From NCBI RefSeq assembly GCF_056712565.1, contig NZ_CM160072.1: a DNA stretch of 64,000 bases. One strand, given 5' to 3'. Each line of letters begins with the position of its first letter. The stretch's first letter is position 1. Below the pieces are notes generated by a model. It had not been told where the DNA came from, made no database searches, and saw nothing but the letters and a program-made list of their open reading frames with translations. Positions 2,450 through 61,738 of this stretch are shown piece after piece. Position numbers and translations under genes: made by a program.

Positions 2450-3577
2450 ATGTCGTGCCCGGTTATTGAGCTGACACAACAGCTTATTCGCCGCCCTTCC
2501 CTGAGTCCTGATGACGCAGGATGCCAGGCTTTGTTGATTGAACGTTTGCAGGCGATCGGTTTTACCGTTGAACGCATGGACTTTGCCGATACGCAGAATT
2601 TTTGGGCATGGCGTGGGCAGGGTGAAACGTTAGCCTTTGCCGGGCATACCGACGTGGTGCCGCCTGGCGACGCCGACCGTTGGATCAATCCGCCGTTTGA
2701 ACCAACCATTCGTGACGGCATGTTATTCGGGCGCGGTGCGGCAGATATGAAAGGCTCGCTGGCGGCGATGGTGGTAGCTGCAGAACGTTTTGTCGCACAA
2801 CATCCCAACCATACGGGGCGACTGGCATTTCTGATCACCTCTGATGAAGAAGCCAGTGCACACAATGGTACGGTAAAAGTCGTCGAAGCGTTAATGGCAC
2901 GTAATGAGCGTCTCGATTACTGCCTGGTTGGCGAACCGTCGAGTATCGAAGTGGTAGGTGATGTGGTGAAAAATGGTCGTCGCGGATCGTTAACCTGCAA
3001 CCTTACCATTCATGGCGTTCAGGGGCATGTTGCCTACCCACATCTGGCTGACAATCCGGTACATCGCGCAGCACCTTTCATTAATGAATTAGTGGCTATT
3101 GAGTGGGATCAGGGTAATGAATTCTTCCCGGCGACCAGTATGCAGATTGCCAATATTCAGGCGGGAACGGGCAGTAACAACGTTATTCCAGGTGAACTGT
3201 TTGTGCAGTTTAACTTCCGCTTTAGCACCGAACTGACGGATGAGATGATCAAAGCGCAGGTGCTTGCCCTGCTTGAAAAACATCAACTGCGCTATACGGT
3301 GGATTGGTGGCTTTCCGGGCAGCCATTTTTGACCGCGCGCGGTAAACTGGTGGATGCGGTCGTTAACGCGGTTGAGCACTATAATGAAATTAAACCGCAG
3401 CTACTGACCACAGGCGGAACGTCCGACGGGCGCTTTATTGCCCGCATGGGGGCGCAGGTGGTGGAACTCGGGCCGGTCAATGCCACGATTCATAAAATTA
3501 ATGAATGTGTGAACGCTGCCGACCTGCAGCTACTTGCCCGTATGTATCAACGTATCATGGAACAGCTCGTCGCCTGA
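2450..3577 (+). CDS. dapE: Succinyl-diaminopimelate desuccinylase
   Basis: 375-aa ORF, M20 peptidase family motifs, synteny. Confidence 0.95.
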
Positions 3578-33665: not shown

Positions 33666-33680
33666 TTACCTTTCGGGTAA
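33666..33680. promoter_or_regulatory. Operator-like palindrome TTACC-N5-GGTAA
   Basis: TTACCTTTCGGGTAA; member of a family of 10 perfect sites in the prophage. Confidence 0.45.
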
Positions 33681-33717
33681 TTTGCAAAACGTGCTGGATA
33701 GCAAACAAATTATTTGT

Positions 33718-33737
33718 TACTGTATAAACATACAGTT
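33718..33737. promoter_or_regulatory. LexA (SOS) box
   Basis: TACTGTATAAACATACAGTT = CTGT-N8-ACAG with TA-rich spacer, 20 bp upstream of ATG 33757. Confidence 0.6.
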
Positions 33738-33756
33738 ATTGCATGGAGAAGATAAG

Positions 33757-34014
33757 ATGCAGCAGTATCACTATCCACTGGAAGACGGATTTACCGAAAG
33801 GATTCACACGCCGGGAGGCGTCAGATCACTGGTGGAGGGATCGCTCTTGATGAAATTACTCCGGGATCTCGATAAGGATGGATTTAATGTCGATGGCCCA
33901 CTTGCCGAACTGACTGCACTGATTAACTACGTCACCAGCTCACAGATGTCTATGCGGGATCTGCAAACACATCTCGACTATTGTGCCGAACAATTACGAA
34001 AACAAACCAGATAA
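33757..34014 (+). CDS. Small antirepressor-like protein (85 aa), paralog of the Ant C-terminal domain
   Basis: MQQYHYPLEDGF...; aligns with C-terminus of the BRO-N protein; RBS GGAGAAG; track start 33634 is an extension. Confidence 0.55.
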   Translation: MQQYHYPLEDGFTERIHTPGGVRSLVEGSLLMKLLRDLDKDGFNVDGPLAELTALINYVTSSQMSMRDLQTHLDYCAEQLRKQTR

Positions 34015-34017
34015 GGT

Positions 34018-34046
34018 TTGCAATTACCAAATGGAGTGCTTATATT
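34018..34046 (+). promoter_or_regulatory. Sigma70-like promoter for antirepressor gene
   Basis: TTGCAA, 17-bp spacer, TATATT; abuts operator 34046-34060. Confidence 0.45.
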
Positions 34047-34060
34047 TACCTTTGCGGTAA
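34046..34060. promoter_or_regulatory. Operator-like palindrome TTACC-N5-GGTAA
   Basis: TTACCTTTGCGGTAA overlapping -10/+1 of the antirepressor promoter. Confidence 0.45.
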
Positions 34061-34326
34061 ATTTACATCGCACTCCTCTTGTGCCATAGTAATCGGGCAC
34101 TGGCAAAATCCAGTGCCGGGATTGGCGTCCCGAGTTACTACAGAGGCACATATGCCGCATAAGCGGTTTTTTTATGTGTAAAGCGCACCTATTCTATGGT
34201 GGGCTGTGTGGGGGCACCGAAAGGTGCGCCGGGTCCTTTGTAGCCGGTTACGCCAACCCTGCACAGTTCACCACCAACCGATTGGCGTCGGTAGTGGTGA
34301 TTAACCTAACTACAAAGGTGATCGCC

Positions 34327-35019
34327 ATGAATACCAAACCTTCCATCTTTTCCTTTGAGTCATCCTGCCAGATCCGTATGTTCATGATTGACGGAGAACC
34401 TTGGTTTGTCACCAAAGATGTGTGCAATGCTTTGAATATTGATGTTACACAAGCGAGAAAACTTGATAAAAAAGGCTGGAACAAAAAGGGGCTGTATTCA
34501 ATACAGACCCCTGGTGGAATACAAGAACTATCCATCGTTTCAGAATCAGGTCTCTACATCCTTATTCTGCGTTGCAAAGAGGCAATGACTGAGGGAACGA
34601 GAGCATTCAGATTTCTTGAATGGGTTACAGGCGAAGTACTTCCTCAGATCCGCCGCACCGGAAGCTACATTAAAAACTCGCTCCCGCAGGAAGAACGCAT
34701 AAAGATGGTTGCCGACCAGGTAGCCAACGCCACGGCGTCAGCAGTAATGCAGGCGATGAAGATAGAGAACAAAACCTACAGCGCCCCACTGAAGCCCGGC
34801 TACCGCAGCCTGATTCATTCGCCGTCTGGTGTTCTCGGCCTGACGGAGAACTCACTGCTGATGAATCTGCTGAACCAGTTACAGGAAGACGGGCACGACG
34901 TATCGGGCGCGGCGGCGGAGCTGACCACCATGTTCTGCTACATCGTCGGTGTGAGCAAGTGCCTGCGTGATATCCAGACGCACGCGGAGTACATCAACGA
35001 CAAGGCTGGGTTCTTCTGA
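34327..35019 (+). CDS. Antirepressor, BRO-N N-terminal domain plus Ant-type C-terminal domain
   Basis: GEPWFVTKDVCNALNI...GLYILILRCKEA...EWVTGEVLPQIRRTG BRO-N signature; ATG 34327 with RBS AAGGTG. Confidence 0.75.
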   Translation: MNTKPSIFSFESSCQIRMFMIDGEPWFVTKDVCNALNIDVTQARKLDKKGWNKKGLYSIQTPGGIQELSIVSESGLYILILRCKEAMTEGTRAFRFLEWVTGEVLPQIRRTGSYIKNSLPQEERIKMVADQVANATASAVMQAMKIENKTYSAPLKPGYRSLIHSPSGVLGLTENSLLMNLLNQLQEDGHDVSGAAAELTTMFCYIVGVSKCLRDIQTHAEYINDKAGFF

Positions 35020-35027
35020 CGGGCGGC

Positions 35028-35046
35028 GGCACATGGATGTGCCTTT
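35028..35046 (+). terminator. Candidate terminator after antirepressor gene
   Basis: GGCACAT-gg-ATGTGCC hairpin then TTT. Confidence 0.35.
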
Positions 35047-35085
35047 AAAATAATCATTGGCGATGTGATGTAGATTCGCGTAATA

Positions 35086-35100
35086 TTACCTTACGGGTAA
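35086..35100. promoter_or_regulatory. Operator-like palindrome TTACC-N5-GGTAA
   Basis: TTACCTTACGGGTAA, 60 bp upstream of ATG 35160. Confidence 0.45.
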
Positions 35101-35159
35101 GAAAGCGTTTTTAATCTTCCCTTCAAAACGCGTCCTGTAGCCAAACATGGGAGGACGAA

Positions 35160-35792
35160 ATGAAAACAAATACAACAAGAAAAGCGATGCCATACATTAT
35201 CCCAGAAGCAGATTTCGACAGAAAACTGAACATGTCTGAGAAGAACACTAGTCACACCGAAAGCTACTTAGCGAAAGGTGTGGTTGATTTCGTTCTTCCG
35301 GGATTCACAACACCTTATGGTTATCGCCTTGTAAAATCTTGTAATGGCGATCATTACAGAATGATTACTACCAGCGATACTCCAGAAACGGTGTATGCGG
35401 TTAAGTTAATCTTTCGGGAAGATATCGTCGAAGCTAAAAGAACATGTACGCAGATCATGGTATGGCGTACGCCTAATGTTATTCATGACCGTGCTGTTCA
35501 TGGTTTGCCTCAGATTTTTTTTCAGTTCTTCCTAGAGCAATATGCGATCGTTGTATCTGATGAGCAACAAACAATCGATGGGAGAAGATTCTGGGAAAGA
35601 ATGATTTCTTGGGCTATAAACACCCCGGGATATAATGTATACGTTTCAGATGGCTCTGAAGAAGATAGACCTCTTAGCTTCATGACATCATGGGATGATT
35701 TCTATAGCCAGTGGGCTGATTTCTGTTGGGGCAGTGATAAAGATGTGCATACCCACAGACTACTGGTTATAAGCAAAGATAAACTGCATTAA
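35160..35792 (+). CDS. Hypothetical cytoplasmic protein (210 aa), moron
   Basis: Own operator, RBS GGGAGGA and terminator; Trp-rich C-terminus; no family recognised. Confidence 0.55.
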   Translation: MKTNTTRKAMPYIIPEADFDRKLNMSEKNTSHTESYLAKGVVDFVLPGFTTPYGYRLVKSCNGDHYRMITTSDTPETVYAVKLIFREDIVEAKRTCTQIMVWRTPNVIHDRAVHGLPQIFFQFFLEQYAIVVSDEQQTIDGRRFWERMISWAINTPGYNVYVSDGSEEDRPLSFMTSWDDFYSQWADFCWGSDKDVHTHRLLVISKDKLH

Positions 35793-35796
35793 TAGA

Positions 35797-35818
35797 AGCC
35801 CGCAGCGCGGGCTTTTTT
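35797..35818 (+). terminator. Rho-independent terminator
   Basis: GCCCGC-agc-GCGGGC then TTTTTT. Confidence 0.55.
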
Positions 35819-35890
35819 GTGGACGAAACAAAAGTCAGTGCTACACTCATTGACGCCACATTGAGGTGGCTTATAGATGGAAATTTCACA

Positions 35891-36052
35891 ATGAAAAAAA
35901 CATTTGCTGCACTGTTCGTTTTGTTGTCTCTGGTAGCTTCAACTCAGGCCTTTGCCGGTCGTTGTCAGCACGACAGCGATACTGCTGCTGACGGCTCCCG
36001 CTGCGGTGGGCGTTCTGCGGATTCCCGCCCGGGCGGCGGTGGCATTCGTTAA
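35891..36052 (+). CDS. Candidate small secreted peptide (53 aa)
   Basis: MKKTFAALFVLLSLVASTQAFA signal peptide, then 2-Cys Gly/Arg-rich 31-aa tail; weak RBS. Confidence 0.3.
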   Translation: MKKTFAALFVLLSLVASTQAFAGRCQHDSDTAADGSRCGGRSADSRPGGGGIR

Positions 36053-36058
36053 AAACAA

Positions 36059-36074
36059 GGCCGCGAAAGCGGCC
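36059..36074 (-). terminator. Terminator ending the minus-strand virion operon
   Basis: GGCCGCGAAAGCGGCC hairpin followed on minus strand by TTGTTTTTAA. Confidence 0.5.
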
Positions 36075-36075
36075 T

Positions 36076-36087
36076 GTGACATGTCAC
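36076..36087. repeat. Perfect 12-bp palindrome GTGACATGTCAC (copy 1 of 3)
   Basis: Exact copies at 36076, 53468, 55919. Confidence 0.5.
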
Positions 36088-36088
36088 G

Positions 36089-36649
36089 CTACATTGATAT
36101 ATGATTCATAAAGTAGCTTAAAGATTTACTTCCCAGAAAAGAAATTTCTTTTCCTGGATATGTCGCAATAATTGAGCATGACTTATCCCCGTTAGAGGTA
36201 ACAAATCCTGAATAACCTACTTGTTCTTTACCATTTTGTTGCTTGGCTAAAAAGTAGAGGTAGCTTATCTTTTTGCCCTCTGGGTAAAACTCTGCCAAAC
36301 CAGTATCGGTGATTGAATATTTTATTCTCCCGCCTTGAGTAACGTTTTCCATCTCAAGTTTAGCTATGTCTTTTCTGTTGTATTCAGCATTGATTTTCCT
36401 TTCGAAATCAATGTTGTTTTCAAATGAGTAGGAAGCAACAGTCTGAATAGATGGGAACACGTTTATCTGGATGCCCCCACAGTCGGCACAGGTATAAAGG
36501 TATGAATCAGATGGAATCCCCATAAAAGAAAACTGAGTTACCTTAAATTTATCGCTATCTCCAAAGTATTGAAGTTCGCATTTAACATTTTGCCCTGCAA
36601 AAGAAAATGCAGACATCAATATTGAAACAAAAAATATAATTGCCTTCAT
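36089..36649 (-). CDS. Secreted Cys-containing protein (186 aa), AT-rich moron at end of virion operon
   Basis: Signal peptide MKAIIFFVSILMSAFSFA; ATG 2 nt after stop of upstream gene. Confidence 0.55.
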   Translation of the reverse strand: MKAIIFFVSILMSAFSFAGQNVKCELQYFGDSDKFKVTQFSFMGIPSDSYLYTCADCGGIQINVFPSIQTVASYSFENNIDFERKINAEYNRKDIAKLEMENVTQGGRIKYSITDTGLAEFYPEGKKISYLYFLAKQQNGKEQVGYSGFVTSNGDKSCSIIATYPGKEISFLGSKSLSYFMNHISM

Positions 36650-36651
36650 TA

Positions 36652-39204
36652 TTATTTACCTAGCATGAACTGCGATGGTGGGATCAGAAAGTCGTTCCCC
36701 TGCTCACGCTCAACACGGCGCTGATAACGCTCAAGAGAGCCTGGGTCAAGGGCATCTTGTATCCGGTTCAATATTAAACCATTCATCGCCGTACGAAGCC
36801 AGAACACGTTGAGGAATGGCGTATTGTCAAGTGCCGTGCGATACCAGTCACCCAAATCTGCATCCCCTCTCGTGGTCTGCTGGAGCAGCGTGATAATGCT
36901 GTCAGCGTTCGATGCTGCTGGCCCCATTAGCGACGTAACCGGCCCGGCCCCCATGCGGTTGACCTCACCAAACATGAAGTCACCCAAGATGCCAAGACCG
37001 CCCCCCTGAGATGCGGCTGCGAGAAACGTCTTGGCATCTGCCGGGCGTGGTGTTTGCCCTTTCAGCATGAGTTTTGACTGCATGGAGATATAACCAAACA
37101 TAGTCGCCCAGACAAAGAGGTTTGCAGCACCAAGGAAAGCCCCCTTCCCGTTACGTAGCAGCGCATTCGTCAGCGATCCGGTTTTCGACTCACCAAGCCC
37201 AGCAGGAATATAACCACGCCCGAATACTTCGCGTCCTAGTACGTTCTGCATGAAGCTTGCAGTGAACGATTTGTACTGACCAGCGAATCGTATTGCTTCC
37301 CCAGCCACCGTTCCTGGCACCGTGCCCATCTTCATAAACGCCTGCGTGCGATCGCCAGGCTCTGACATGGCGATATTCAGACGGTCAAGGATGTAGCCGC
37401 GCAACTGCCCTTCCAATTGATCGCGTGCGTCAGCGATAGCGCGCTGCGTTGGTTTGATCCCCTTACTCTCTACATAACCGGCAATCACTTCGTCAGGCAC
37501 GCCGCGGATGCCGCTGGTCGTCATGAACTTACGACCTTCGCTATCGGCCATGTCCATGTTGCGAAAAATTTCCCACTCACGTTCGCCAATACCGTGCAGA
37601 TCCAGCACGCGTCGCAGGTCTTCCGGTAGCCGCGCATGAGACTGGTCAGCATTCTTTGCAAGCCAGTTGGTTATCATCATGGCGTTGCTGTTGCGACCGC
37701 TCTCGGTCCAGAAGTTCATGAGGTTGTACTTAAAGAAAAGCTGCTGCGCGCGACCAAGCTTTCCATTCAGCGTGTCATCACCAGATATGCGCCGGATGAT
37801 TTCCTGCGTCATGGAGTCGGAATAAACTCCGATAGAGGAAAGGATCTCTTTCTGCTCCGCGCTGTTGTAACGCGTGAAGCGGCCTCTCATAGCACCAAGC
37901 AACGCCTGCATAAAATTCTGCCCTTGGTAGCGCATCTCGGTAGCGGCGATAGGCACGTCGTTAAACGATGAGATTACCGCGCCACCAAGTTGGCTCATAC
38001 GCAACCAGCCGCGTACAGCCGCCGACGCATTGGCCCAGCCTACGCTGCCAGGAATATTTAGCGAGCCGTCAACCTGCGGCATTACGGTACGGTTAATGCG
38101 ACGCACCTTCGTCATGTAGTCAGCCAACGCTGCCGGTCTTCCGGATTTGCTGATATCTTCAGCAATGGCGTCCGTCAGGTACTTAAACATGTTCTGTGGG
38201 TTAGTGCCCAGTACGCGCATCATGCCCGTTGTGCGGGCAGCGCTGTTTAAGCCACCAAACAGCGCTTCTCGCAGGCTGCCGGTGCCGAATTGCTGGTTGT
38301 ACTCGTGCCACGAGATACCATCTTTGAAGTGCAAAATTCGCTCTTGGCTGGCGCGTTTAGCTGCGTTCGCCGATCCCTTAAAGCCATTCATCCAATCGGG
38401 CTTTTCAGATGTAAGATGCACGCCGGAAGCCAGCCCGTTATAAATGTTACGCATGAACTGCTCGCGGTCAGCCACGCCGTCAAAAGTGCGCTCATCAAGG
38501 CGCGGGAGAATAGCATTTCGCCATGCTTCATAACCTGCGGCGCGGATCTTCATGATGTCGTGTGACTGGCGCACTATATAGCCCGGCTCTTTGCGTATCC
38601 ATGCCCCGGCGCGGTTCTCATCAATGCGCGCAGTTTCCTGCCATTTCATGATGATTTGTGCAGCGCTTACGGATTGCTTTGTCATACCGTCAGTTGACTG
38701 CCCGCGCCCTATGCGCCACATTGCATCGGCAATTTCCCGGTCATTGCTGCCGCTGGCGATGAATTGCACCAGCCCGGCACGGTCAAAATCGTAGTTGATA
38801 CCGGAATGATACTTGCCGCGCAGTTGCGCCACCTCCGAAGATACCGACCGGCGGGCGCCGGTACGCGCATCGTTGCGGCCAACCAGCATTGCTTCAAGCC
38901 CGATATCCGGGCGGTCTTTCCAGATAGTACGAAGCTCTCTAAGTCGTTGTGCGGCAATACGGGCGTCGATTGCCTTATTGCGAGCCTCAATCTGTTTTGC
39001 CAGCATATCGGCATTGCTCAGTTCTTCCGCTGCGCGCATCGCGGCCTCTTCCAGAGACAGCGCCTCATTGGTCGCCAGAATTCGCCTAGTGGTGTCGTTC
39101 ATGTCACGCACCAGCGACTCCATCTCATCGGAAGAAAGCTCGCGACCAGCGGCAGCATTTACACTGCGCTCGCACTGCGTCAAAAATTCGTTTGCTGCCA
39201 TCAC
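36652..39204 (-). CDS. Large internal virion / DNA-ejection protein (850 aa)
   Basis: Position between tail-tube-like genes and tailspike; overlapping starts/stops with neighbours. Confidence 0.55.
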   Translation of the reverse strand: MMAANEFLTQCERSVNAAAGRELSSDEMESLVRDMNDTTRRILATNEALSLEEAAMRAAEELSNADMLAKQIEARNKAIDARIAAQRLRELRTIWKDRPDIGLEAMLVGRNDARTGARRSVSSEVAQLRGKYHSGINYDFDRAGLVQFIASGSNDREIADAMWRIGRGQSTDGMTKQSVSAAQIIMKWQETARIDENRAGAWIRKEPGYIVRQSHDIMKIRAAGYEAWRNAILPRLDERTFDGVADREQFMRNIYNGLASGVHLTSEKPDWMNGFKGSANAAKRASQERILHFKDGISWHEYNQQFGTGSLREALFGGLNSAARTTGMMRVLGTNPQNMFKYLTDAIAEDISKSGRPAALADYMTKVRRINRTVMPQVDGSLNIPGSVGWANASAAVRGWLRMSQLGGAVISSFNDVPIAATEMRYQGQNFMQALLGAMRGRFTRYNSAEQKEILSSIGVYSDSMTQEIIRRISGDDTLNGKLGRAQQLFFKYNLMNFWTESGRNSNAMMITNWLAKNADQSHARLPEDLRRVLDLHGIGEREWEIFRNMDMADSEGRKFMTTSGIRGVPDEVIAGYVESKGIKPTQRAIADARDQLEGQLRGYILDRLNIAMSEPGDRTQAFMKMGTVPGTVAGEAIRFAGQYKSFTASFMQNVLGREVFGRGYIPAGLGESKTGSLTNALLRNGKGAFLGAANLFVWATMFGYISMQSKLMLKGQTPRPADAKTFLAAASQGGGLGILGDFMFGEVNRMGAGPVTSLMGPAASNADSIITLLQQTTRGDADLGDWYRTALDNTPFLNVFWLRTAMNGLILNRIQDALDPGSLERYQRRVEREQGNDFLIPPSQFMLGK

Positions 39205-50200: not shown

Positions 50201-50493
50201 TCCTGTTCACTGGCCTCTTTGGCCATCTTCAAATACTGTTCAGGGCAATGCGCCATAACGCGCTGAAACAGTTCCAGCGCCAGATTGCGTTGCCCCTCAT
50301 TAAATGCCATTGCCATAGCGTCCATCGGTGAGATAGCGGAAAACACACGGCCTTTCTCCAGCACCGACCAGACAACGCGACGCCCCTGTTCACTGCTCAT
50401 GACAAAGCGAATGTCATCAATTTCACGCTGCGCCATGTCACGTTGCTTACGGGCGTTTTCTTCTTTCAGTTGATCGTCTTCGTAATCTGTCAT
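50197..50493 (-). CDS. Hypothetical head-assembly protein (98 aa)
   Basis: Coupled ORF between portal and scaffold. Confidence 0.45.
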   Translation of the reverse strand: MTDYEDDQLKEENARKQRDMAQREIDDIRFVMSSEQGRRVVWSVLEKGRVFSAISPMDAMAMAFNEGQRNLALELFQRVMAHCPEQYLKMAKEASEQE

Positions 50494-52169
50494 TGTGATT
50501 GCCCACCCTGACCACTAACTGCATTCGCCATAGCTGACAAAACACTCGGATCCGAAGTTTTAGCTTCACTTAGCGTCTTGGCACCCTGTGCCGCCGCCAT
50601 CCCCATCGCCATCATTTGTTGCTGCTGTTGTTGCTGTGCCCGTTGCTGGCGAGCCTGCTCAACCTGTTCCTGCGGAACAATGACGGTTGGAGACACTCCG
50701 GACATATCAGCGAATGCATCGATCGCCTGATCAACGTTGAGTTTGTCGAGAGCTTCTGGTTTCGCTTGCGCAAGTTGACCAATGAAGTTAACCGTGGACG
50801 CCAGACTGGACAGGCCGATAGACTTCTGCGCCTGAGCCATGACGGAAATGTATTCGACCTTCAGGGGCATGCCTTCCATCGCGTCAGGCGGTGGCGGCAG
50901 CATGTTTTTACGCACCATCATCGAGAAAGAGCGATCAATGAGAGGATTAAGACATTCGTCGTTCAGGCGCTCCAGAACCGGCCCCAACATCAGAAGTTTT
51001 TCTTCTTTCATTTCGATCACCGCTTCCACAGGCATCGAGCGGGTATTGATGTTCTGCAACATCATGAACAGATCGACAAAGTAGGCGCTGTTAATGATTT
51101 GACGAGTGTCCTGAATGTCTGCCACCAAATCTGCTGTACTGGGGTTAACCAGATAAGCAGGCCTGAAACCATCCTGACCAGTAATCTGATCGATATACGT
51201 GATGTCGCCAGGAAGAAGGGAGGCACGCTGATTCTTGAGGGAAGTCGGAGCAACCATCGGCGGATTGGTGGCTTTATCAATCAACTGCGACTTGCGCTTC
51301 TGGAGAAGCTGCAATGCCTTAACAGGTCCAAGCGCCAGCATACCCGGGCATGATGATCCATAAACATCTTCGCCGTTAACTTCCCAGCGCGGAGCCATAA
51401 TTGGAAACTCATCGAATCCGGACTCACGCAACAACTTGTCGTTATCGCCACCAACCTCGTAATAAACCGATTTGAATGGCTTGTTCTTGCTATCCAGCTT
51501 CGATGTATCGCGGTCAATGTTCGGGTAAACCGAATGCATCACTTCAATCCACTTCTCGTAGGTGCCGCTTTCCCACATGCTTTTTACGGATTCGCTGACG
51601 TTATTTAGCCCGAACTCCTGAACAAGCTGACGAACAGTCATAGAGAACTTGCGAAAACAGGTGTCCACACTGCCACGAGGTGAGTTAGCCAGGTAGTAAC
51701 TGCCTATCGGGAATGGCATTGTGCGAATGATGTCCTCGTCATCCTCCAGCACTGCCATTGCACCAGTGCTGTATGTGCCGAGGCTTCCGTATAACTGCGG
51801 CAGCGACTGATAGAGATTCGACTTATTGAACATATCGTTCATGCGGTTCTGCACCGCCTCAAGCCACAACTTAACAGGGCCATAATCCATCATTTCAGGA
51901 TCTGGCGTAGCCAGGCGAAACCACGGACGCGCGGGGCTTGTGATGCCTGACATCATGCCGCTGGCGAGAGTGCGCGCCGCCATAGTCCCGGTCGAATCAA
52001 TAATGCGTGTATTGCGTCGATCGTTACGGTTGACCTCAGAAGTCAGAAAGCGGGAACCACGCGGGTTGATGTAATCACTCAACTCGCGCCAGTGCGGCTC
52101 GAACGACTGACGCTCGCTTTCAAGTTGTGCGAACTGTTTGTTCAATCGCTCTTTAGTTGTTTCCGCCAT
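50490..52169 (-). CDS. Portal protein
   Basis: 559 aa, downstream of terminase with moron between; Gln/Ala-rich C-terminus. Confidence 0.7.
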   Translation of the reverse strand: MAETTKERLNKQFAQLESERQSFEPHWRELSDYINPRGSRFLTSEVNRNDRRNTRIIDSTGTMAARTLASGMMSGITSPARPWFRLATPDPEMMDYGPVKLWLEAVQNRMNDMFNKSNLYQSLPQLYGSLGTYSTGAMAVLEDDEDIIRTMPFPIGSYYLANSPRGSVDTCFRKFSMTVRQLVQEFGLNNVSESVKSMWESGTYEKWIEVMHSVYPNIDRDTSKLDSKNKPFKSVYYEVGGDNDKLLRESGFDEFPIMAPRWEVNGEDVYGSSCPGMLALGPVKALQLLQKRKSQLIDKATNPPMVAPTSLKNQRASLLPGDITYIDQITGQDGFRPAYLVNPSTADLVADIQDTRQIINSAYFVDLFMMLQNINTRSMPVEAVIEMKEEKLLMLGPVLERLNDECLNPLIDRSFSMMVRKNMLPPPPDAMEGMPLKVEYISVMAQAQKSIGLSSLASTVNFIGQLAQAKPEALDKLNVDQAIDAFADMSGVSPTVIVPQEQVEQARQQRAQQQQQQQMMAMGMAAAQGAKTLSEAKTSDPSVLSAMANAVSGQGGQSQ

Positions 52170-52390: not shown

Positions 52391-52458
52391 ATCAATGACT
52401 CCGTACGCAATTAAATTATTACCAATTTAACCACATATGATTTATTTATCGTAGAAGG

Positions 52459-52495
52459 TTGACATTTAACGCGTTAATTATTACCTTTCAGGTAA
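52459..52495. promoter_or_regulatory. TTGACA -35-like hexamer plus operator-like palindrome (52481-52495)
   Basis: TTGACA at 52459-52464; TTACCTTTCAGGTAA at 52481-52495. Confidence 0.4.
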
Positions 52496-52816
52496 CCAAG
52501 AGCTCATTCTGGTTACTAACCTGACTGGCTTGTCGTTAAATTAAACAGGTGGAGTGAGCTTTTATTTTGAGCAGTACGGCGTATGGCACATGCGCCGATA
52601 GCGGTCTGGATACGTTTAAGGGGCACCCTCCCTTGCTCGGGCAAACGAACCAGGTAGCCGGAATGTGCAAGTCGAGCGGTTTTATTCCGCGCACGGGGAT
52701 TCACCATCCCGGCGATTCGGTGTGACGCCTCGGAAGAGACGAGGGTACAACGATGAGAGCATTTATGGAGCCGCGACAAAGTGTGGCGCCTTAACAGGCT
52801 AAGTGCTCTCAGCGTT

Positions 52817-52893
52817 GTGGCATTAGCTCAGTTGGACAGAGCAACCGCCTTCTAAGCGGTTGGTCGCAGGTTCGAATCCTGCATGCCACGCCA
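52817..52893 (+). tRNA. Phage-encoded tRNA-Arg, anticodon UCU
   Basis: Cloverleaf by hand: acceptor GTGGCAT/ATGCCAC, D-arm GCTC/GAGC, anticodon stem ACCGC/GCGGT, loop CTTCTAA, T-arm GCAGG-TTCGAAT-CCTGC, CCA end. Confidence 0.85.
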
Positions 52894-53091
52894 GAATCAC
52901 GCCTAAGGACCGTGATGCCAGAAGTTCCAGGTGCTTGGCGGTGATGGTTTCCCTTGAAGGACTATCACCGCCCTTTTTACAGCAGGACGCCATTGCGATG
53001 ACTTCATGCTGTAAACCAGTACAGCCACGGAAGGCATAACTCATTGCTTCCAGTTCGCCCGGTTCGCCGGGCATTTTTTAAAGGTGAGATT

Positions 53092-53463
53092 ATGAACGAC
53101 CAGCAAATCGAAAAAGAAATCGTTGAGAAAGGCAAAACGGCACCGCGCGTTACGCCAGACCATATCGAAGGCATTATTGCTCAGGAGGCATATTTCACAG
53201 CAGAAGATGGTGCCTTTGGCAAAGCCATAAAAGCGAAACATACTGGCGGAGAGGTAAACTACCAGCCGCACGAATCACTTTCTCTGCTGACGTTCTGCGT
53301 CCTGGTGCTGCGCAACGGCTTCACCGTCACCGGAGAGAGCGCCTGTGCAAGCCCGGAAAACTTTGATGCGGAAATTGGTCGGGAGATTGCCCGGCAGAAT
53401 GCTGTAAACAAAATCTGGATGCTCGAAGGTTACTTGCTGAAGCAGAAGTTAAGCGAGCAATAA
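53092..53463 (+). CDS. Hypothetical protein (123 aa) co-oriented with tRNA; moron
   Basis: ATG 53092 with RBS AAAGGTGAG; plus-strand island in minus-strand operon; family not confidently recognised. Confidence 0.55.
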   Translation: MNDQQIEKEIVEKGKTAPRVTPDHIEGIIAQEAYFTAEDGAFGKAIKAKHTGGEVNYQPHESLSLLTFCVLVLRNGFTVTGESACASPENFDAEIGREIARQNAVNKIWMLEGYLLKQKLSEQ

Positions 53464-53483: not shown

Positions 53484-53510
53484 AGCCAGCCGATGAGCTG
53501 GCTTTGTTTT
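53484..53510. terminator. Rho-independent (probably bidirectional) terminator
   Basis: AGCCAGC-cgatga-GCTGGCT then TTGTTTT. Confidence 0.6.
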
Positions 53511-53553: not shown

Positions 53554-55029
53554 TTAAGCATAAGGGTCATAATCCGTTATGGCCCTTCCCTGCTGGCTTT
53601 GCTGTCCAGGTATATTTATGCGTTTCGAGACCGGGAAAGCAAACGTCAGCAGTAGCGCATCGCCTTTACCCGGCGAACGCCCAAGCCGCTCCTTGATATC
53701 TTCCTTCGGTTCGATAACGATTTTACCGTCCACACGAACTTTGTACTCTGCCGCCGACAGGTCGTCTGCAGTTTCCTGGTCATCCAGCATGCCGCCGAGC
53801 CTCAGCCATGTCTTGCATGAGTTGAACATCTCCCCACGCTTGTTGAGCATCTGCGGGTCAGTAGACGCGCCACCGAACGGAACAAGTTGCCATGTACGTC
53901 CCCAGCCATCACCGATTGACTTCAAACCGGTTCCGTAACCGAAGTCGATGAACACCGCGTCAGCCTGATACTGGTCTTCAAAGTCAGCGATACGCTTCGC
54001 CATAATCAGATCGTCGGTAGTCTTGTTGCCAGTCCACAGCACCTTACTGTGTAGCCCCTGCCGCAGGTATATCACAGCGTCATCAACGCCGGAGTATGCC
54101 GGGTCAACGCCGATTATCACCGGAGCATGTGCAACCTGCGCAGCGGTTACCACCCGTTTCATTGCCTCGTCAGTAAGACCGGTAGGGATAAACTGCAATT
54201 CAGATGCATCAGGGAATATGCCACGCACACGGATTTTAACGAAGTCGCTGTCTTCCCCGTAGTCATCAACCCATTTCTGCAACTGCTGTTTGTTGGTACC
54301 TTCCACCGTCCGACTGTCAATCTGCGCAGTTTTCCAGCGGTGTTTATACTTGCGGAAACATTCACGGAAACGTCCGGTATTACGTGTAGGGTTTCCGAAC
54401 GCCACCCAAATAATCTCAGTGTCTTCGTCCGTAAGCGCACCCTCGGCAACTTCCCACACCAGATCCGCAATGTTCGACGCTTCATCAAACACCACGATGA
54501 TGCGTTTGCGCTCGTTGTGTAGTCCGGCGAATGCCTCGGTGTTGTGCTCAGACCAGGGTATTGCGTCAGCCCGCCACCGCTTGTCGTGCCCTAGGTCATT
54601 GCTGTACATCGCGGTAGCGGTACAGGTAAACCAGTCTTTCGTGATAGCAAGGTTCGACCACTTGATAATTTCCGGCCAGGTCTTCGTTCGTAGCTGGTTG
54701 TCGGTGTTGGCGGTCACCACGACCTTACAATCCTCGCAAGTGGACATGCCCCAGTTGATCAGCATTGAGATGAATGCGGATTTACCAATACCGTGACCAG
54801 AAGCGCGTGCCAGCATAAGCGGCTGATAGCGCGTCTCTGGATTCTGCAGGTGATCACGTATCTCTCGGAACGCATCAGCCTGCCACTGACGTGGGCCGGT
54901 GGCATGTGCCAGTTCAGTCCCCTCTTCCCCCCATGGGAACGCATAGAGGGCATAGCCAAGCGGATCGTGAGTGAACCCTGCAATATCCTCGATTAACTGC
55001 TCTTCAGGAGATAACGCTGTATCTGTCAC
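53554..55029 (-). CDS. Terminase large subunit
   Basis: 491 aa; Walker A-like ASGHGIGKS; C-terminal nuclease-like region; follows small subunit with overlap. Confidence 0.85.
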   Translation of the reverse strand: MTDTALSPEEQLIEDIAGFTHDPLGYALYAFPWGEEGTELAHATGPRQWQADAFREIRDHLQNPETRYQPLMLARASGHGIGKSAFISMLINWGMSTCEDCKVVVTANTDNQLRTKTWPEIIKWSNLAITKDWFTCTATAMYSNDLGHDKRWRADAIPWSEHNTEAFAGLHNERKRIIVVFDEASNIADLVWEVAEGALTDEDTEIIWVAFGNPTRNTGRFRECFRKYKHRWKTAQIDSRTVEGTNKQQLQKWVDDYGEDSDFVKIRVRGIFPDASELQFIPTGLTDEAMKRVVTAAQVAHAPVIIGVDPAYSGVDDAVIYLRQGLHSKVLWTGNKTTDDLIMAKRIADFEDQYQADAVFIDFGYGTGLKSIGDGWGRTWQLVPFGGASTDPQMLNKRGEMFNSCKTWLRLGGMLDDQETADDLSAAEYKVRVDGKIVIEPKEDIKERLGRSPGKGDALLLTFAFPVSKRINIPGQQSQQGRAITDYDPYA

Positions 55030-55622
55030 TGATTGCCATCCTGACGTTCTTTCAGTCTCTTCCTGGCTGCCGCTATGCGATCAGCAATTGTCACATTCAC
55101 ATTAACATCCAGGCGTTCTTTGAATGCGTTGACGTCGACGTGCTTACCAATCAGTTCGAGGTTCTTCACCTTGTCAGGCCATTTAATTTTTTTGAGGATT
55201 GTCTCTATCGAATCCTCGTTCATGTTCATGATGGTCGATGACAGATCAAAGCCACTAAGCGTAGTGCGCCAGATTTTCGGCCACTCGCGGATTGGCTTAA
55301 GGCTCCCATCGTCGTTGAGGATGTCGATCACGTCCATCTGGTCGATCTCCACCAGGCGCATGAGAACGTAATCAGCACTGACGCGCATTCGTTTGTTGCG
55401 CTCCTCCATCAACTCGGCAATCCGTTTTTGAATGCGTTCATCGCGCATCATGACACTGGCTTTAACTGCCGCTGTATTTGGGGAGAATCCTGCGTTAATC
55501 GCTGCCTGAGTCTGGTTTTCAGGCGTTTTGATGTATGACTGGCAATAAGCCTCCTGCATTGCTGTTAGTGGCTTAAATTGCGTTGATTTGCGTTTATAGG
55601 TTTTAGGTTCAGCAGGCATCAT
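55026..55622 (-). CDS. Terminase small subunit
   Basis: ATG 55622/55619 preferred; track start 55700 is a TTG extension over a terminator and operator. Confidence 0.55.
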   Translation of the reverse strand: MMPAEPKTYKRKSTQFKPLTAMQEAYCQSYIKTPENQTQAAINAGFSPNTAAVKASVMMRDERIQKRIAELMEERNKRMRVSADYVLMRLVEIDQMDVIDILNDDGSLKPIREWPKIWRTTLSGFDLSSTIMNMNEDSIETILKKIKWPDKVKNLELIGKHVDVNAFKERLDVNVNVTIADRIAAARKRLKERQDGNQ

Positions 55623-55639
55623 AACCACCGTGGTAATAG

Positions 55640-55654
55640 TTACCGTTGTGGTAA
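55640..55654. promoter_or_regulatory. Operator-like palindrome TTACC-N5-GGTAA upstream of packaging operon
   Basis: TTACCGTTGTGGTAA, 18 bp upstream of small-terminase ATG. Confidence 0.45.
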
Positions 55655-58556: not shown

Positions 58557-58571
58557 TTACCTCTAAGGTAA
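58557..58571. promoter_or_regulatory. Operator-like palindrome TTACC-N5-GGTAA
   Basis: TTACCTCTAAGGTAA immediately upstream of ATG 58553. Confidence 0.45.
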
Positions 58572-58618
58572 TTAAAAACCACATAAGACACGAAATCAAT
58601 AGATCTAAGAACATTTTG

Positions 58619-58633
58619 TTACCTATTGGGTAA
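58619..58633. promoter_or_regulatory. Operator-like palindrome TTACC-N5-GGTAA
   Basis: TTACCTATTGGGTAA in P / nuclease-like spacer. Confidence 0.45.
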
Positions 58634-60564: not shown

Positions 60565-60579
60565 TTACCTTTGAGGTAC
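60565..60579. promoter_or_regulatory. Imperfect operator-like site
   Basis: TTACCTTTGAGGTAC (one mismatch). Confidence 0.35.
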
Positions 60580-60594
60580 GAATAGATATGAAAA

Positions 60595-60612
60595 GACCGC
60601 CGGGTGGCGGTC
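60595..60612 (-). terminator. tR1-like terminator after cro-like gene
   Basis: Minus strand GACCGCC-accc-GGCGGTC then TTTTCAT. Confidence 0.5.
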
Positions 60613-60634
60613 TACAGAGGGTTGTAGCTGGATA

Positions 60635-60865
60635 TCATGAGTAGAAGAAGTATGCCAGTTCTGCTTTTGAGCGCAGCCATTGTCTTGTTTTACAGGCTTT
60701 AAAAAGCCCATTCATCAATACTTTACCTGGCATTTTTCGCTTACCTGTTAAGTGAGTCTGGATATAGTGACTCGTCGTTCCGGCTTCCTGTGCGAAGGCT
60801 TCACGCTCATCCGGAGTAAGTGCAAGCCAGTGCTTTTTGAAATCGAAATGTCCGTTATCGCTCAT
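60635..60865 (-). CDS. Cro-like HTH regulator (76 aa)
   Basis: Divergent from cI-like gene across the operator cluster; HTH LTPDEREAFAQEAGTTSHYIQ. Confidence 0.55.
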   Translation of the reverse strand: MSDNGHFDFKKHWLALTPDEREAFAQEAGTTSHYIQTHLTGKRKMPGKVLMNGLFKACKTRQWLRSKAELAYFFYS

Positions 60866-60901
60866 AGCTATTGCCTGATATTTATTTCAGATAATAAATA
60901 T

Positions 60902-60964
60902 TCACCCATAAGGTAACAAAAATCAAGGATAGTTACCTATGAGGTGCATTTACCTGTTGGGTAA
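60902..60964. promoter_or_regulatory. OR-like tripartite operator region between cro-like and cI-like genes
   Basis: TCACCCATAAGGTAA (60902), TTACCTATGAGGTGC (60933), TTACCTGTTGGGTAA (60950). Confidence 0.5.
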
Positions 60965-61019
60965 TATTGCTTTAAATTGAATCATCTACTGATTCATATA
61001 TGAGGCGATTTTCCAGAAA

Positions 61020-61604
61020 ATGAAAAGTATCCAGGACGTCCGCAGGCAAAATCTCAACGACTTGATCGACCGTGAATTCAATGGTGTTCAGACGCGGATG
61101 GCAGAAAAACTTGGAACTCAGGCAAATCTGGTAAACCGCTGGGCTCTTGGCAAGAAGGTTATCGGCGACCAGGTTGCGCGAAAAATTGAAGCTGCCGCCA
61201 ATAAACCCCGTAACTGGCTTGATATCGATCGCTCGCTTTCTCAGGAAGGTTTTCAGCCTGTCGGCCCAAGCGACATTGGTCAGCTGGCGGCTCACAACCT
61301 GGAACGCTGGATGAGCGAAAGCCGCGACCTTTCAACACAGGGAAAACTTCACCGCGCATCCGGCGTCGCCCAGGTGACAATCAGCCGCCTGTTAAACAAT
61401 GAGGTCAGCGTTTCCATTTCCACCCTGGAGAATGTTGCATCCGCATTCGGGCGTCACGGCTATGAATTACTGATTCACCCGCACGACCCTGCGACTATCA
61501 ACTATGACCGCTCGCGCTACGCATTGTTACCCGAAACAGAGAAGGCAAAGATCGAAAGTTACATTGAATTTGTCATCAGCCAGAACGAAAAAAACAAACA
61601 ATAA
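61020..61604 (+). CDS. CI-like repressor, HTH type, no recognisable LexA-type autocleavage domain
   Basis: 194 aa, two HTH-like segments, no Ala-Gly/Ser-Lys S24 motifs; followed by terminator. Confidence 0.65.
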   Translation: MKSIQDVRRQNLNDLIDREFNGVQTRMAEKLGTQANLVNRWALGKKVIGDQVARKIEAAANKPRNWLDIDRSLSQEGFQPVGPSDIGQLAAHNLERWMSESRDLSTQGKLHRASGVAQVTISRLLNNEVSVSISTLENVASAFGRHGYELLIHPHDPATINYDRSRYALLPETEKAKIESYIEFVISQNEKNKQ

Positions 61605-61625
61605 AATCATATTTTTCAGTAAGTA

Positions 61626-61648
61626 AGCCGCCTCATGGCGGCTTTTTT
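61626..61648 (+). terminator. Rho-independent terminator after cI-like gene
   Basis: AGCCGCC-tcatg-GCGGCT then TTTTTT. Confidence 0.6.
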
Positions 61649-61661
61649 ATTGCCAGCAAGA

Positions 61662-61738
61662 TTACCTTATGGGTAATTTTTTTAACTCATATCTATTGAC
61701 ATCAAACCAGATACGCATAATCATTACCTCAACGGTAA
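61662..61738 (+). promoter_or_regulatory. pL-like promoter flanked by two operator palindromes
   Basis: TTACCTTATGGGTAA (61662-61676), TTGACA 61696-61701, ATAATC -10-like, TTACCTCAACGGTAA (61724-61738). Confidence 0.5.

Follow-up and report, generated by a model that had tools for sequence, protein, structure and literature searches.

The window (the whole 64,000-nucleotide stretch that was analysed, from contig NZ_CM160072.1 of assembly GCF_056712565.1) carries an epsilon15/phiV10-like (Uetakevirus) prophage, and its positions 52391-53090 are 98% identical to phiV10. The genes for the large terminase (53554-55029) and the portal (50490-52169) lie on the - strand, and a small + strand island sits between them. 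Besides the RNA element that is the subject of this work and its folded neighbours, the island contains

52460..52495, + strand: putative early promoter, read from the sequence, with -35 TTGACA (52460-65) and a weak -10 TACCTT (52483-88)
52817..52893, + strand: tRNA-Arg(UCU) with an encoded CCA, found by ARAGORN and the Rfam tRNA model
53092..53463, + strand: downstream accessory gene of the Phage_gp49_66 family (Pfam E = 1.4e-34)
53484-53503, + strand: terminator T3, 3' of the Phage_gp49_66 gene

An earlier sequence-only reading of this DNA had drawn attention to the interval 52497-52816, which it described as bordered by a phage tRNA and free of any credible open reading frame. Both descriptions are correct. 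ARAGORN calls a tRNA-Arg(TCT) at 52817-52893, to which the Rfam tRNA model assigns 73.3 bits, and the interval contains only short non-ATG frames, namely an antisense TTG frame of 87 aa (52516-52779) and others of 52, 52 and 45 aa. The operator that the same reading had placed at 52481 also stands. The palindrome is TTACCTTTCAGGTAA (52481-52495), the motif TTACC-N5-GGTAA is present in the window in 10 exact and 6 one-mismatch copies versus 1.1 expected, and the epsilon15 record has a repressor site annotated at the homologous position. Another palindrome, TTAACGCGTTAA in the promoter spacer, was considered as an operator and rejected, being unique in the window and showing no enrichment. The operator overlaps the early promoter, which we call putative because a consensus promoter scan did not call it at 52460-52495. 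With a real operator in front, the island most probably represents an early transcription unit that the lysogen keeps repressed. The operator-like copies are scattered over the prophage (33666-36287, 52481-52495, 55622-55654, 58557-58633 and 60565-61738), a distribution that points to a repressor acting through dispersed operators, as C1 does in P1. At 34097-34278, isrK (74.2 bits) and C4 antisense RNA (79.5 bits) adjoin each other with the operator motif flanking them, and this region looks like the immI-like antirepressor control region of an epsilon15-like prophage.

From position 52576 on, the sequence is 70-83% identical to the DNA of unrelated temperate phages. The conserved unit, which we call the core, was delimited as follows:

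52577..52745, + strand: core RNA, the conserved unit common to three phage contexts (R1 model, 143.7 bits)
52577..52597, + strand: hairpin P1, whose lower 5 bp covary
52601..52658, + strand: helix P2 (52601-09 with 52650-58), enclosing the variable hairpin P2a
52653..52671, + strand: near-invariant 19-mer GGUAGCCGGAAUGUGCAAG, exact in 140/146
52671..52713, + strand: region of P3, P3a and P4, supported by covariation in P4
52671-73 with 52711-13, + strand: helix P3 (GUC/GGC), enclosing the variable P3a and P4
52696-99 with 52707-10, + strand: helix P4, with the loop UUCACCA
52714..52727, + strand: conserved joining strand GAUUCGGUGUGAC, possibly pairing with the P4 loop
52728..52744, + strand: hairpin P5 (52728-32 with 52740-44), with the loop GAAGAGA and double changes

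That the interval might encode a structured RNA had been one of several suggestions, and it is strongly supported by conservation, by covariation and by G-U pairs, which are consistent only with the + strand, the sense strand of the downstream genes. In an alignment (A2) of 55 core copies, each sharing less than 93% identity with any other, invariant blocks alternate with variable hairpins. A pair count over this alignment found 96.3% of the cells paired, with compensatory double changes at 14 pairs, over 116 cells. None of 500 shuffled versions reached the observed pairing and covariation, and shifting the partners by 1-3 columns lowered the pairing to 27-48%. The covariation analysis across related phages, which had been proposed as a check, therefore gave a result above every control. 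According to the model derived from the alignment, the core comprises five helices and two likely pseudoknots. Within A2, one P1 pair alternates between AU (28 sequences) and GC (25 sequences), and one P2 pair changes from C-G to U-A in 14 sequences. Double changes affect three of the four P4 pairs (in 10, 9 and 18 sequences) and four of the five P5 pairs. The stem GGGGATTCACCATCCC (52695-52710), singled out in the sequence-only reading, is real and is helix P4. The loop of P2a carries a CCUCCCUU / UUCCYUUG motif.

The first candidate pseudoknot joins the P1 loop GCACAU (52586-91) to AUGUGC (52663-68). It is 99.4% paired, but invariant, and may thus be regarded as likely though unproven; the mismatches that do occur hit the competing top of P1 instead. 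The second joins GGUG (52719-22) to CACC of the P4 loop (52702-05) and is 98.2% paired, with a single C-G to A-U double change that is confined to the mEp460 lineage. The 19-mer GGUAGCCGGAAUGUGCAAG served as a search key, and hence its invariance within A2 holds by construction. In order to have an independent measure, we selected sequences with a separate P1/P2 pattern. Among the 146 unique sequences of this set the 19-mer is exact in 140 (96%) and has one mismatch in four more, so its invariance is real.

The element is widespread. Its lambdoid carriers include mEp460, cdtI, Stx2a- and Stx2c-converting phages, 2H10 and Ayreon, and it is also found in P1, P7, D6, SJ46 and RCS47. Of the 590 plasmid records that match, 548 are non-mobilizable, and the matches listed fit the P1 pattern. 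Further carriers are Klebsiella, Enterobacter and Salmonella relatives of epsilon15 and one phage recorded on Stenotrophomonas. Apart from a handful of 'hypothetical protein' calls, we found nothing annotated beneath these matches. Of 5,426 complete E. coli genomes, 1,835 have a match to the core alone, with a maximum of four copies in one genome. Other Enterobacterales carry it as well, and its exact 19-mer occurs in genomes of Citrobacter, Klebsiella, Kosakonia, Phytobacter, Buttiauxella, Pseudescherichia and Erwinia, as well as in at least 120 IMG/VR viral contigs. The exact 19-mer is also present on two short MAG contigs labelled Bacillota and Lachnospiraceae (L138 and L151), which probably represent binning contamination by enterobacterial prophage DNA.

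The sequence-only reading had offered a decayed second tRNA as another explanation of the interval. ARAGORN and the Rfam tRNA model are blank in 52497-52816, even at E<=10, and the fold of five helices with pseudoknots contains no cloverleaf; we therefore rejected this candidate. A protein-coding function on either strand was rejected as well. The length of the core varies from 158 to 187 nt, and the 55 homologues are distributed over the classes modulo 3 as 12/27/16. The variable columns are divided among the three codon positions as 31/37/31 in the antisense frame and 27/31/27 in the + frame. Since the lengths fall into every class modulo 3 and there is no third-position excess, the region is non-coding. 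It is true that tRNA-like modules exist downstream in relatives and that the antisense frame is free of stops in 44 of the 55 cores. However, the blank tRNA searches, the indels of every class without codon periodicity, the 14 pairs with compensatory changes, the 19-mer exact in 96% of the independently selected copies and the retention of the core across three unrelated phage lineages make it very improbable that the element is a decayed tRNA, a small protein gene on either strand or a functionless neutral leader.

The Infernal/Rfam scan, which had also been proposed as a check, matched the element to no known family. With the window and with the leaders of loci L043 and L001, no Rfam 15 family matched the core at the gathering or at permissive (E<=10) thresholds; the matches obtained were at chance level and all lay outside the core. 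The DicF model and the riboswitch and ribozyme families in Rfam gave no match to the core either. Among the loci examined, no conserved terminator or ribosome-binding-site pairing overlaps the core fold, which is aptamer-like. The core is thus a folded RNA that belongs to no Rfam 15 family. A literature search of partial coverage turned up no description of this RNA, and an earlier description may exist elsewhere.

The sequence-only reading had further proposed that the region is a tRNA precursor leader. For the window this is literally correct, as the 3' helix of the element overlaps bases 1-3 of the tRNA, but it does not explain the element, because only 33 of 128 loci have a tRNA nearby (tRNA-Arg(UCU) downstream or tRNA-Ile(CAU) upstream) and at some sites, P1 ban among them, a solitary core precedes the genes. 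Another candidate is a self-cleaving or processing-guide RNA that would cut a polycistronic leader to free the tRNA and the mRNA. The size, pseudoknots and invariant bases of the core are ribozyme-like, and in the window it adjoins a tRNA with which the P6 helix shares those three bases. Nevertheless, the core matches no known ribozyme family, most copies are unaccompanied by a tRNA, a conserved candidate cleavage site is absent, and host RNase P suffices for the 5' ends of tRNAs, all of which renders such an activity quite improbable.

The core is found in three contexts, and all three are repressor-controlled early transcripts. The first is the terminase-portal island of epsilon15/phiV10-like phages, to which the window belongs. 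The second is the pL leader of those lambdoid phages that yielded no N-type antiterminator gene, and the third is the C1-controlled ban operon of P1. In mEp460 (L001), the stop codon of cI is followed by the cI terminator, two oL-type operators and a pL-like promoter (2902-2954) and, after about 35 nt, by the core (2995-3174); T1 (3386-3430), a second P6-like domain and the first early-left gene lie beyond it. The operators of this leader resemble those at oR. The same order of a cI-like repressor, the core and early genes, with the latter two on the same strand, is seen in Stx2a_WGPS2 and in the Stenotrophomonas phage BUCT708. In P1, the core lies between tRNA-Ile and ban and the other leader modules are missing; the ban operon also contains three tRNAs and a dicF-like sRNA region. 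The R1 model matches once in the window and once in the entire mEp460 genome, and thus there is no second copy in the mEp460 pR operon. No phage gene is common to all three contexts. N-like antiterminator families are absent from the first three downstream ORFs of 63 loci, and neither mEp460 nor Stx2a_WGPS2 has an annotated N gene.

In most leaders the core is one of several modules, the usual order being the core, a second folded domain, a tRNA or tRNA-like module, a long-stem terminator and the genes. In the window, the modules outside the core are

52498..52562, + strand: P0, a 5' leader helix of low confidence from the minimum-energy fold, AAGAGCUCA (52499-507) with UGAGCUUUU (52551-59)
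52746..52819, + strand: P6 domain, supported by fold energy, with the helix UACAACGAUGAGAGCA / UGCUCUCAGCGUUGUG (52746-60 with 52804-19)
52896..52916, + strand: predicted conserved hairpin AUCACG...CGUGAU, which recurs in Uetakevirus and lambdoid loci
52937..52979, + strand: T1, a long-stem intrinsic terminator, GGCGGUGAU...AUCACCGCC (stem 52937-72) and then the U run CUUUUUA
53057..53079, + strand: terminator T2, GCCCGG UUCG CCGGGC (stem 53057-72) and then AUUUUUU, 13 nt before the start codon

P0 is part of the minimum-energy fold, yet its z is only -0.8; analogous AAAGCGCGC/GUGCGCUUU helices were recognized by eye in Tyrion, PAT1 and epsilon15. The long helix of P6 closes a variable three-way junction, and its last three bases are bases 1-3 of the tRNA. 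In the window, the P6 fold has an energy of -37.4 kcal/mol (z = -6.4). The helix is retained with differing sequences in 38 of 63 representatives, and its strands change together in relatives (GAUGAGAGCA/UGCUCUCAG, GGUAAGAGCA/UGCUCUUUCC, AUGAAAGCGCAC/GUGCGCUUCC and GAUGAUGGCU/AGUCAUCUUC). An ungapped alignment of the P6 strands recovered the six basal pairs and no more; the support for the rest of P6 comes from reading the sequences of the loci and from the window fold. T1, with about -20 kcal/mol, is present in approximately 45 of the 63 representatives, both epsilon15-like and lambdoid. Its base is conserved and three of its upper pairs covary. In the epsilon15 record a terminator is annotated at the site homologous to T2.

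Most relatives have, in the slot of tRNA-Arg, a tRNA-like module of the form GUGGUG...hairpin...CACCACAAC. Examples with an acceptor-like GUGGUG/CACCAC are found in L001 (3235-3385), L043 (2790-2985), L028 and L088, and some of these modules have a true T-arm (GGTTCGAATCC) and a D-arm together with long inserts. Neither ARAGORN nor the Rfam tRNA model calls the tRNA-like modules. Since the leaders of other loci gain extra P5/P6-like units, small ORFs and tRNAs, we consider the leader to be modular and the core to be one portable module of it. The small ORFs (63, ~47 and 70 aa, in L101, L094/L025 and L114) have ribosome-binding sites and are situated between the core and the tRNA or T1, 20-80 nt after P5. 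In three other loci (L026, L066 and L115), a hairpin and a perfect rrn-type boxA, GCTCTTTAACA(A), follow P5 at ~45 nt, and a reverse-oriented ORF lies between boxA and T1.

The cargo of the island varies also. The Phage_gp49_66 gene is found here and in five other loci, and a Tad2-like (Thoeris anti-defence) gene in four (e.g. L007, 2511-3029). The latter occupies the cargo slot in Klebsiella relatives. To judge from these sequences, the island looks like an early-expressed accessory or anti-defence cassette.

Two phages have lost most of the core or lack it. In epsilon15 (L004, 2544-2652), a single deletion that runs from the P2a loop into the 3' half of T1 has taken out the greater part of the core together with P6, the tRNA and T1's 5' half, but has spared T2 and the downstream gene. 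In ST64B, the core is absent although T1 and other leader modules are present, and for this reason the phage was discarded as a source of transcriptome annotation. Its 815-nt non-coding leader between cI (sb38) and sb37 (L157, 27238-28052, - strand) contains P6, a tRNA-like module, T1 and a second P6-like domain, and an unrelated module of ~300 nt, which includes another terminator-like hairpin, takes the place of the core.

Our leading interpretation, offered tentatively, casts the core as a processive antitermination RNA that works in cis in the manner of HK022 put and would perform the task for which lambda uses its N/nut system. The core would be transcribed at the start of the repressor-controlled early transcript, and the nascent RNA would fold into a compact double-pseudoknot structure. 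Once folded, it would target the host RNA polymerase engaged in transcription, or a host elongation factor attached to that enzyme, and the polymerase would then pass T1 and T2 and reach the genes beyond. Strong terminators separate the core from the first gene in approximately 45 of the 63 representatives, no promoter was found between them, and folded leader modules carry on past T1. Because these modules continue beyond it, T1 is internal to the leader and does not mark the end of an RNA gene. Taken together, these three observations imply that the early-left genes could be expressed only by read-through. In lambdoid phages, furthermore, the core is positioned as nutL is in lambda and putL in HK022 and HK639. 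Because the three phage groups share no gene, the partner of the core would have to be a host component, and the near-invariant single-stranded bases fit such a partner.

In favour of antitermination in cis we therefore count a real and elaborate RNA, the early contexts, the terminators and the lack of an N-like gene. The boxA that follows the core in three loci and the loss of parts of both the core and T1 in the one epsilon15 deletion are weaker hints. A number of observations count against it. There is a single copy per genome, whereas HK022 has put in both early operons. The P1 core has no terminator after it and is placed amid tRNAs and the dicF-like sRNA, surroundings that look like a stable RNA gene cluster. 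ST64B has T1 without the core, so either another module does the core's job there or T1 needs no antiterminator, and epsilon15 retains T2 without the core. In epsilon15-like phages, the element serves a small accessory island only. Moreover, a double pseudoknot of 170 nt exceeds what put needs (~70 nt), and long-stem terminators, to go by the title of one paper, reportedly resist processive antitermination.

By function and position, put RNA is the nearest known system, but the core is not a member of the put family. The put RNA promotes terminator read-through in cis, and its action is blocked by mutations in the β' zinc-binding domain. To our knowledge, RNA-only processive antitermination is essentially limited to one family, put of HK022 and its relatives. 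Like the core, the put RNA of HK022 and the putL-like RNA of HK639 are folded leader RNAs located just 3' of a repressor-controlled early promoter; the HK639 record annotates its putL-like antiterminator at the nutL/putL position. An N-type antiterminator gene was found neither in these phages nor in the core-bearing lambdoid phages. In both systems, terminators precede the early genes and no dedicated phage protein is evident. The differences are just as clear. Put has two stem-loops in ~70 nt (126 nt as annotated in HK639) and is present twice per genome, in the pL and pR operons of HK022, whereas the core has five helices and two likely pseudoknots in ~170 nt and is present once. Epsilon15-like phages and P1 carry the core as well, which sets it apart from put. 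Homology was rejected, as the R1 model has no match in HK022 or HK639 and the HK022 putL sequence shows no resemblance. A BLAST search of all loci with the HK639 putL-like RNA gave nothing below E = 0.1. In HK639 (L158), an 'M3-like RNA' is annotated at 37910-37969, just after cII in the pR operon.

The core could also be compared with the lambda nut site and its N protein and with the boxB-boxA-boxC of the rrn leader. It occupies the position of nutL, the 3' strand of its P6 is often UGCUCUUU-like, and a perfect boxA follows it in L026, L066 and L115. However, a lambda-type nut site consists of boxA and a boxB hairpin and goes with an N-type protein encoded by the phage, and no N-like gene was found at the core loci searched. 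The window and 60 of the 63 representatives lack a canonical boxA, and the boxA-like P6 strand, unlike the boxA of nut, is enclosed in a covarying helix and shows no sequence conservation. With up to two mismatches, boxA (YGCUCUUUA) is found in 6 of 63 representatives versus 4 of 63 on the reverse strand. Given a true boxA in three loci only and a similar reverse-strand control, we rejected a general boxA/nut reading.

The sequence-only reading had also named an sRNA, and this idea stays in contention. A possible though less probable alternative is thus that the core is a stable trans-acting RNA, which would be cut from the early transcript and, in the early lytic phase, attach to a protein or RNA of the host. 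The cuts might be made by RNase P where the tRNA or its tRNA-like counterpart lies, and by RNase III or RNase E in the long flanking helices, and the product might have a role in host takeover, anti-defence or tRNA-related functions. The portability of the module fits such an RNA, as do the 33 of 128 loci that have tRNA-Arg(UCU) on its 3' side or tRNA-Ile(CAU) on its 5' side, the tRNA-like modules elsewhere and the P1 operon, in which the core is accompanied by three tRNAs and the dicF-like sRNA. The core is flanked by the long helices P0 and P6, and the epsilon15 record has an RNase III site in the homologous leader. The complexity and the invariant loops of the core would suit protein binding, Tad2-like anti-defence genes are among the neighbours in the island, and the layout of promoter, RNA and T1 resembles that of an RNA gene. 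On the other hand, in P1 ban, L101, L094 and L114 the core is directly in the 5' UTR with no processing module between, the folded modules go on past T1, and the early-left genes of lambdoid phages would be left without a visible means of expression.

In other respects, too, the core can be set beside known non-coding RNAs. DicF and similar early-left sRNAs of prophages are, like the core, encoded inside a repressor-controlled early operon, but DicF is a base-pairing sRNA of 53 nt, whereas the core is three times larger and pseudoknotted. GOLLD and ROOL are large ornate phage-associated RNAs of 500-800 nt that are found near tRNAs, mostly in Gram-positive bacteria. They share with the core a prophage location, often by tRNAs, and a complex fold; they are, however, in Rfam, where the core matches nothing.

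Unlikely, in our estimate, is some other cis-regulatory leader, that is, a switch sensing a ligand or a factor, or a 5' structure that stabilizes the early mRNA or modulates its translation and thereby sets its amount or use. A pseudoknotted fold whose junction bases are invariant is characteristic of aptamers, the core is 20-60 nt before start codons in P1, L101, L094 and L114, and it has both Shine-Dalgarno-like (GGAAGAG) and anti-Shine-Dalgarno-like (CCUCCCUU) loops. Against this, no expression platform overlaps the fold, T1 follows at a distance of 180-800 nt that in some cases includes a tRNA or small ORF, the sequence right after the core differs completely across the contexts, and no Rfam riboswitch matches.

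Returning to antitermination in cis, we put forward, with somewhat greater reserve, a broader version of it. The core may represent a new protein-independent class of RNA, with no structural relationship to put, that reprograms the host elongation complex, a portable 'gate' with its own T1, which epsilon15-like phages, lambdoid phages that yielded no N-type gene and P1-like lineages would have taken up to time early expression and to carry tRNAs and anti-defence genes. If antitermination by the core is true, it would be a second, unrelated and much larger antitermination RNA, which would mean that this solution evolved more than once, and it would offer a new handle on the control of RNA polymerase by nascent RNA. 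Whatever its function, a complex pseudoknotted RNA is present in about one third of complete E. coli genomes as well as in P1-like phage-plasmids and Stx-converting phages, and it is annotated nowhere and is not in Rfam. With the core as a marker, the early-left leaders of many prophages can be recognized as modular vehicles for RNAs, tRNAs and small genes, and because anti-defence genes adjoin it, the core bears on how prophages start lytic growth.

Also of note are the loops of the core and the terminator. The P2a loop (52625-52640) and the T1 loop (52950-52960) both contain the anti-Shine-Dalgarno-like UUCCCUU(G), here and in L007, L010, L013 and other loci, and the GGAAGAG or GGGAAAG loops of P5 and P5-like hairpins are partly complementary to it. 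Through this complementarity, the core and the terminator might make loop-loop contacts.
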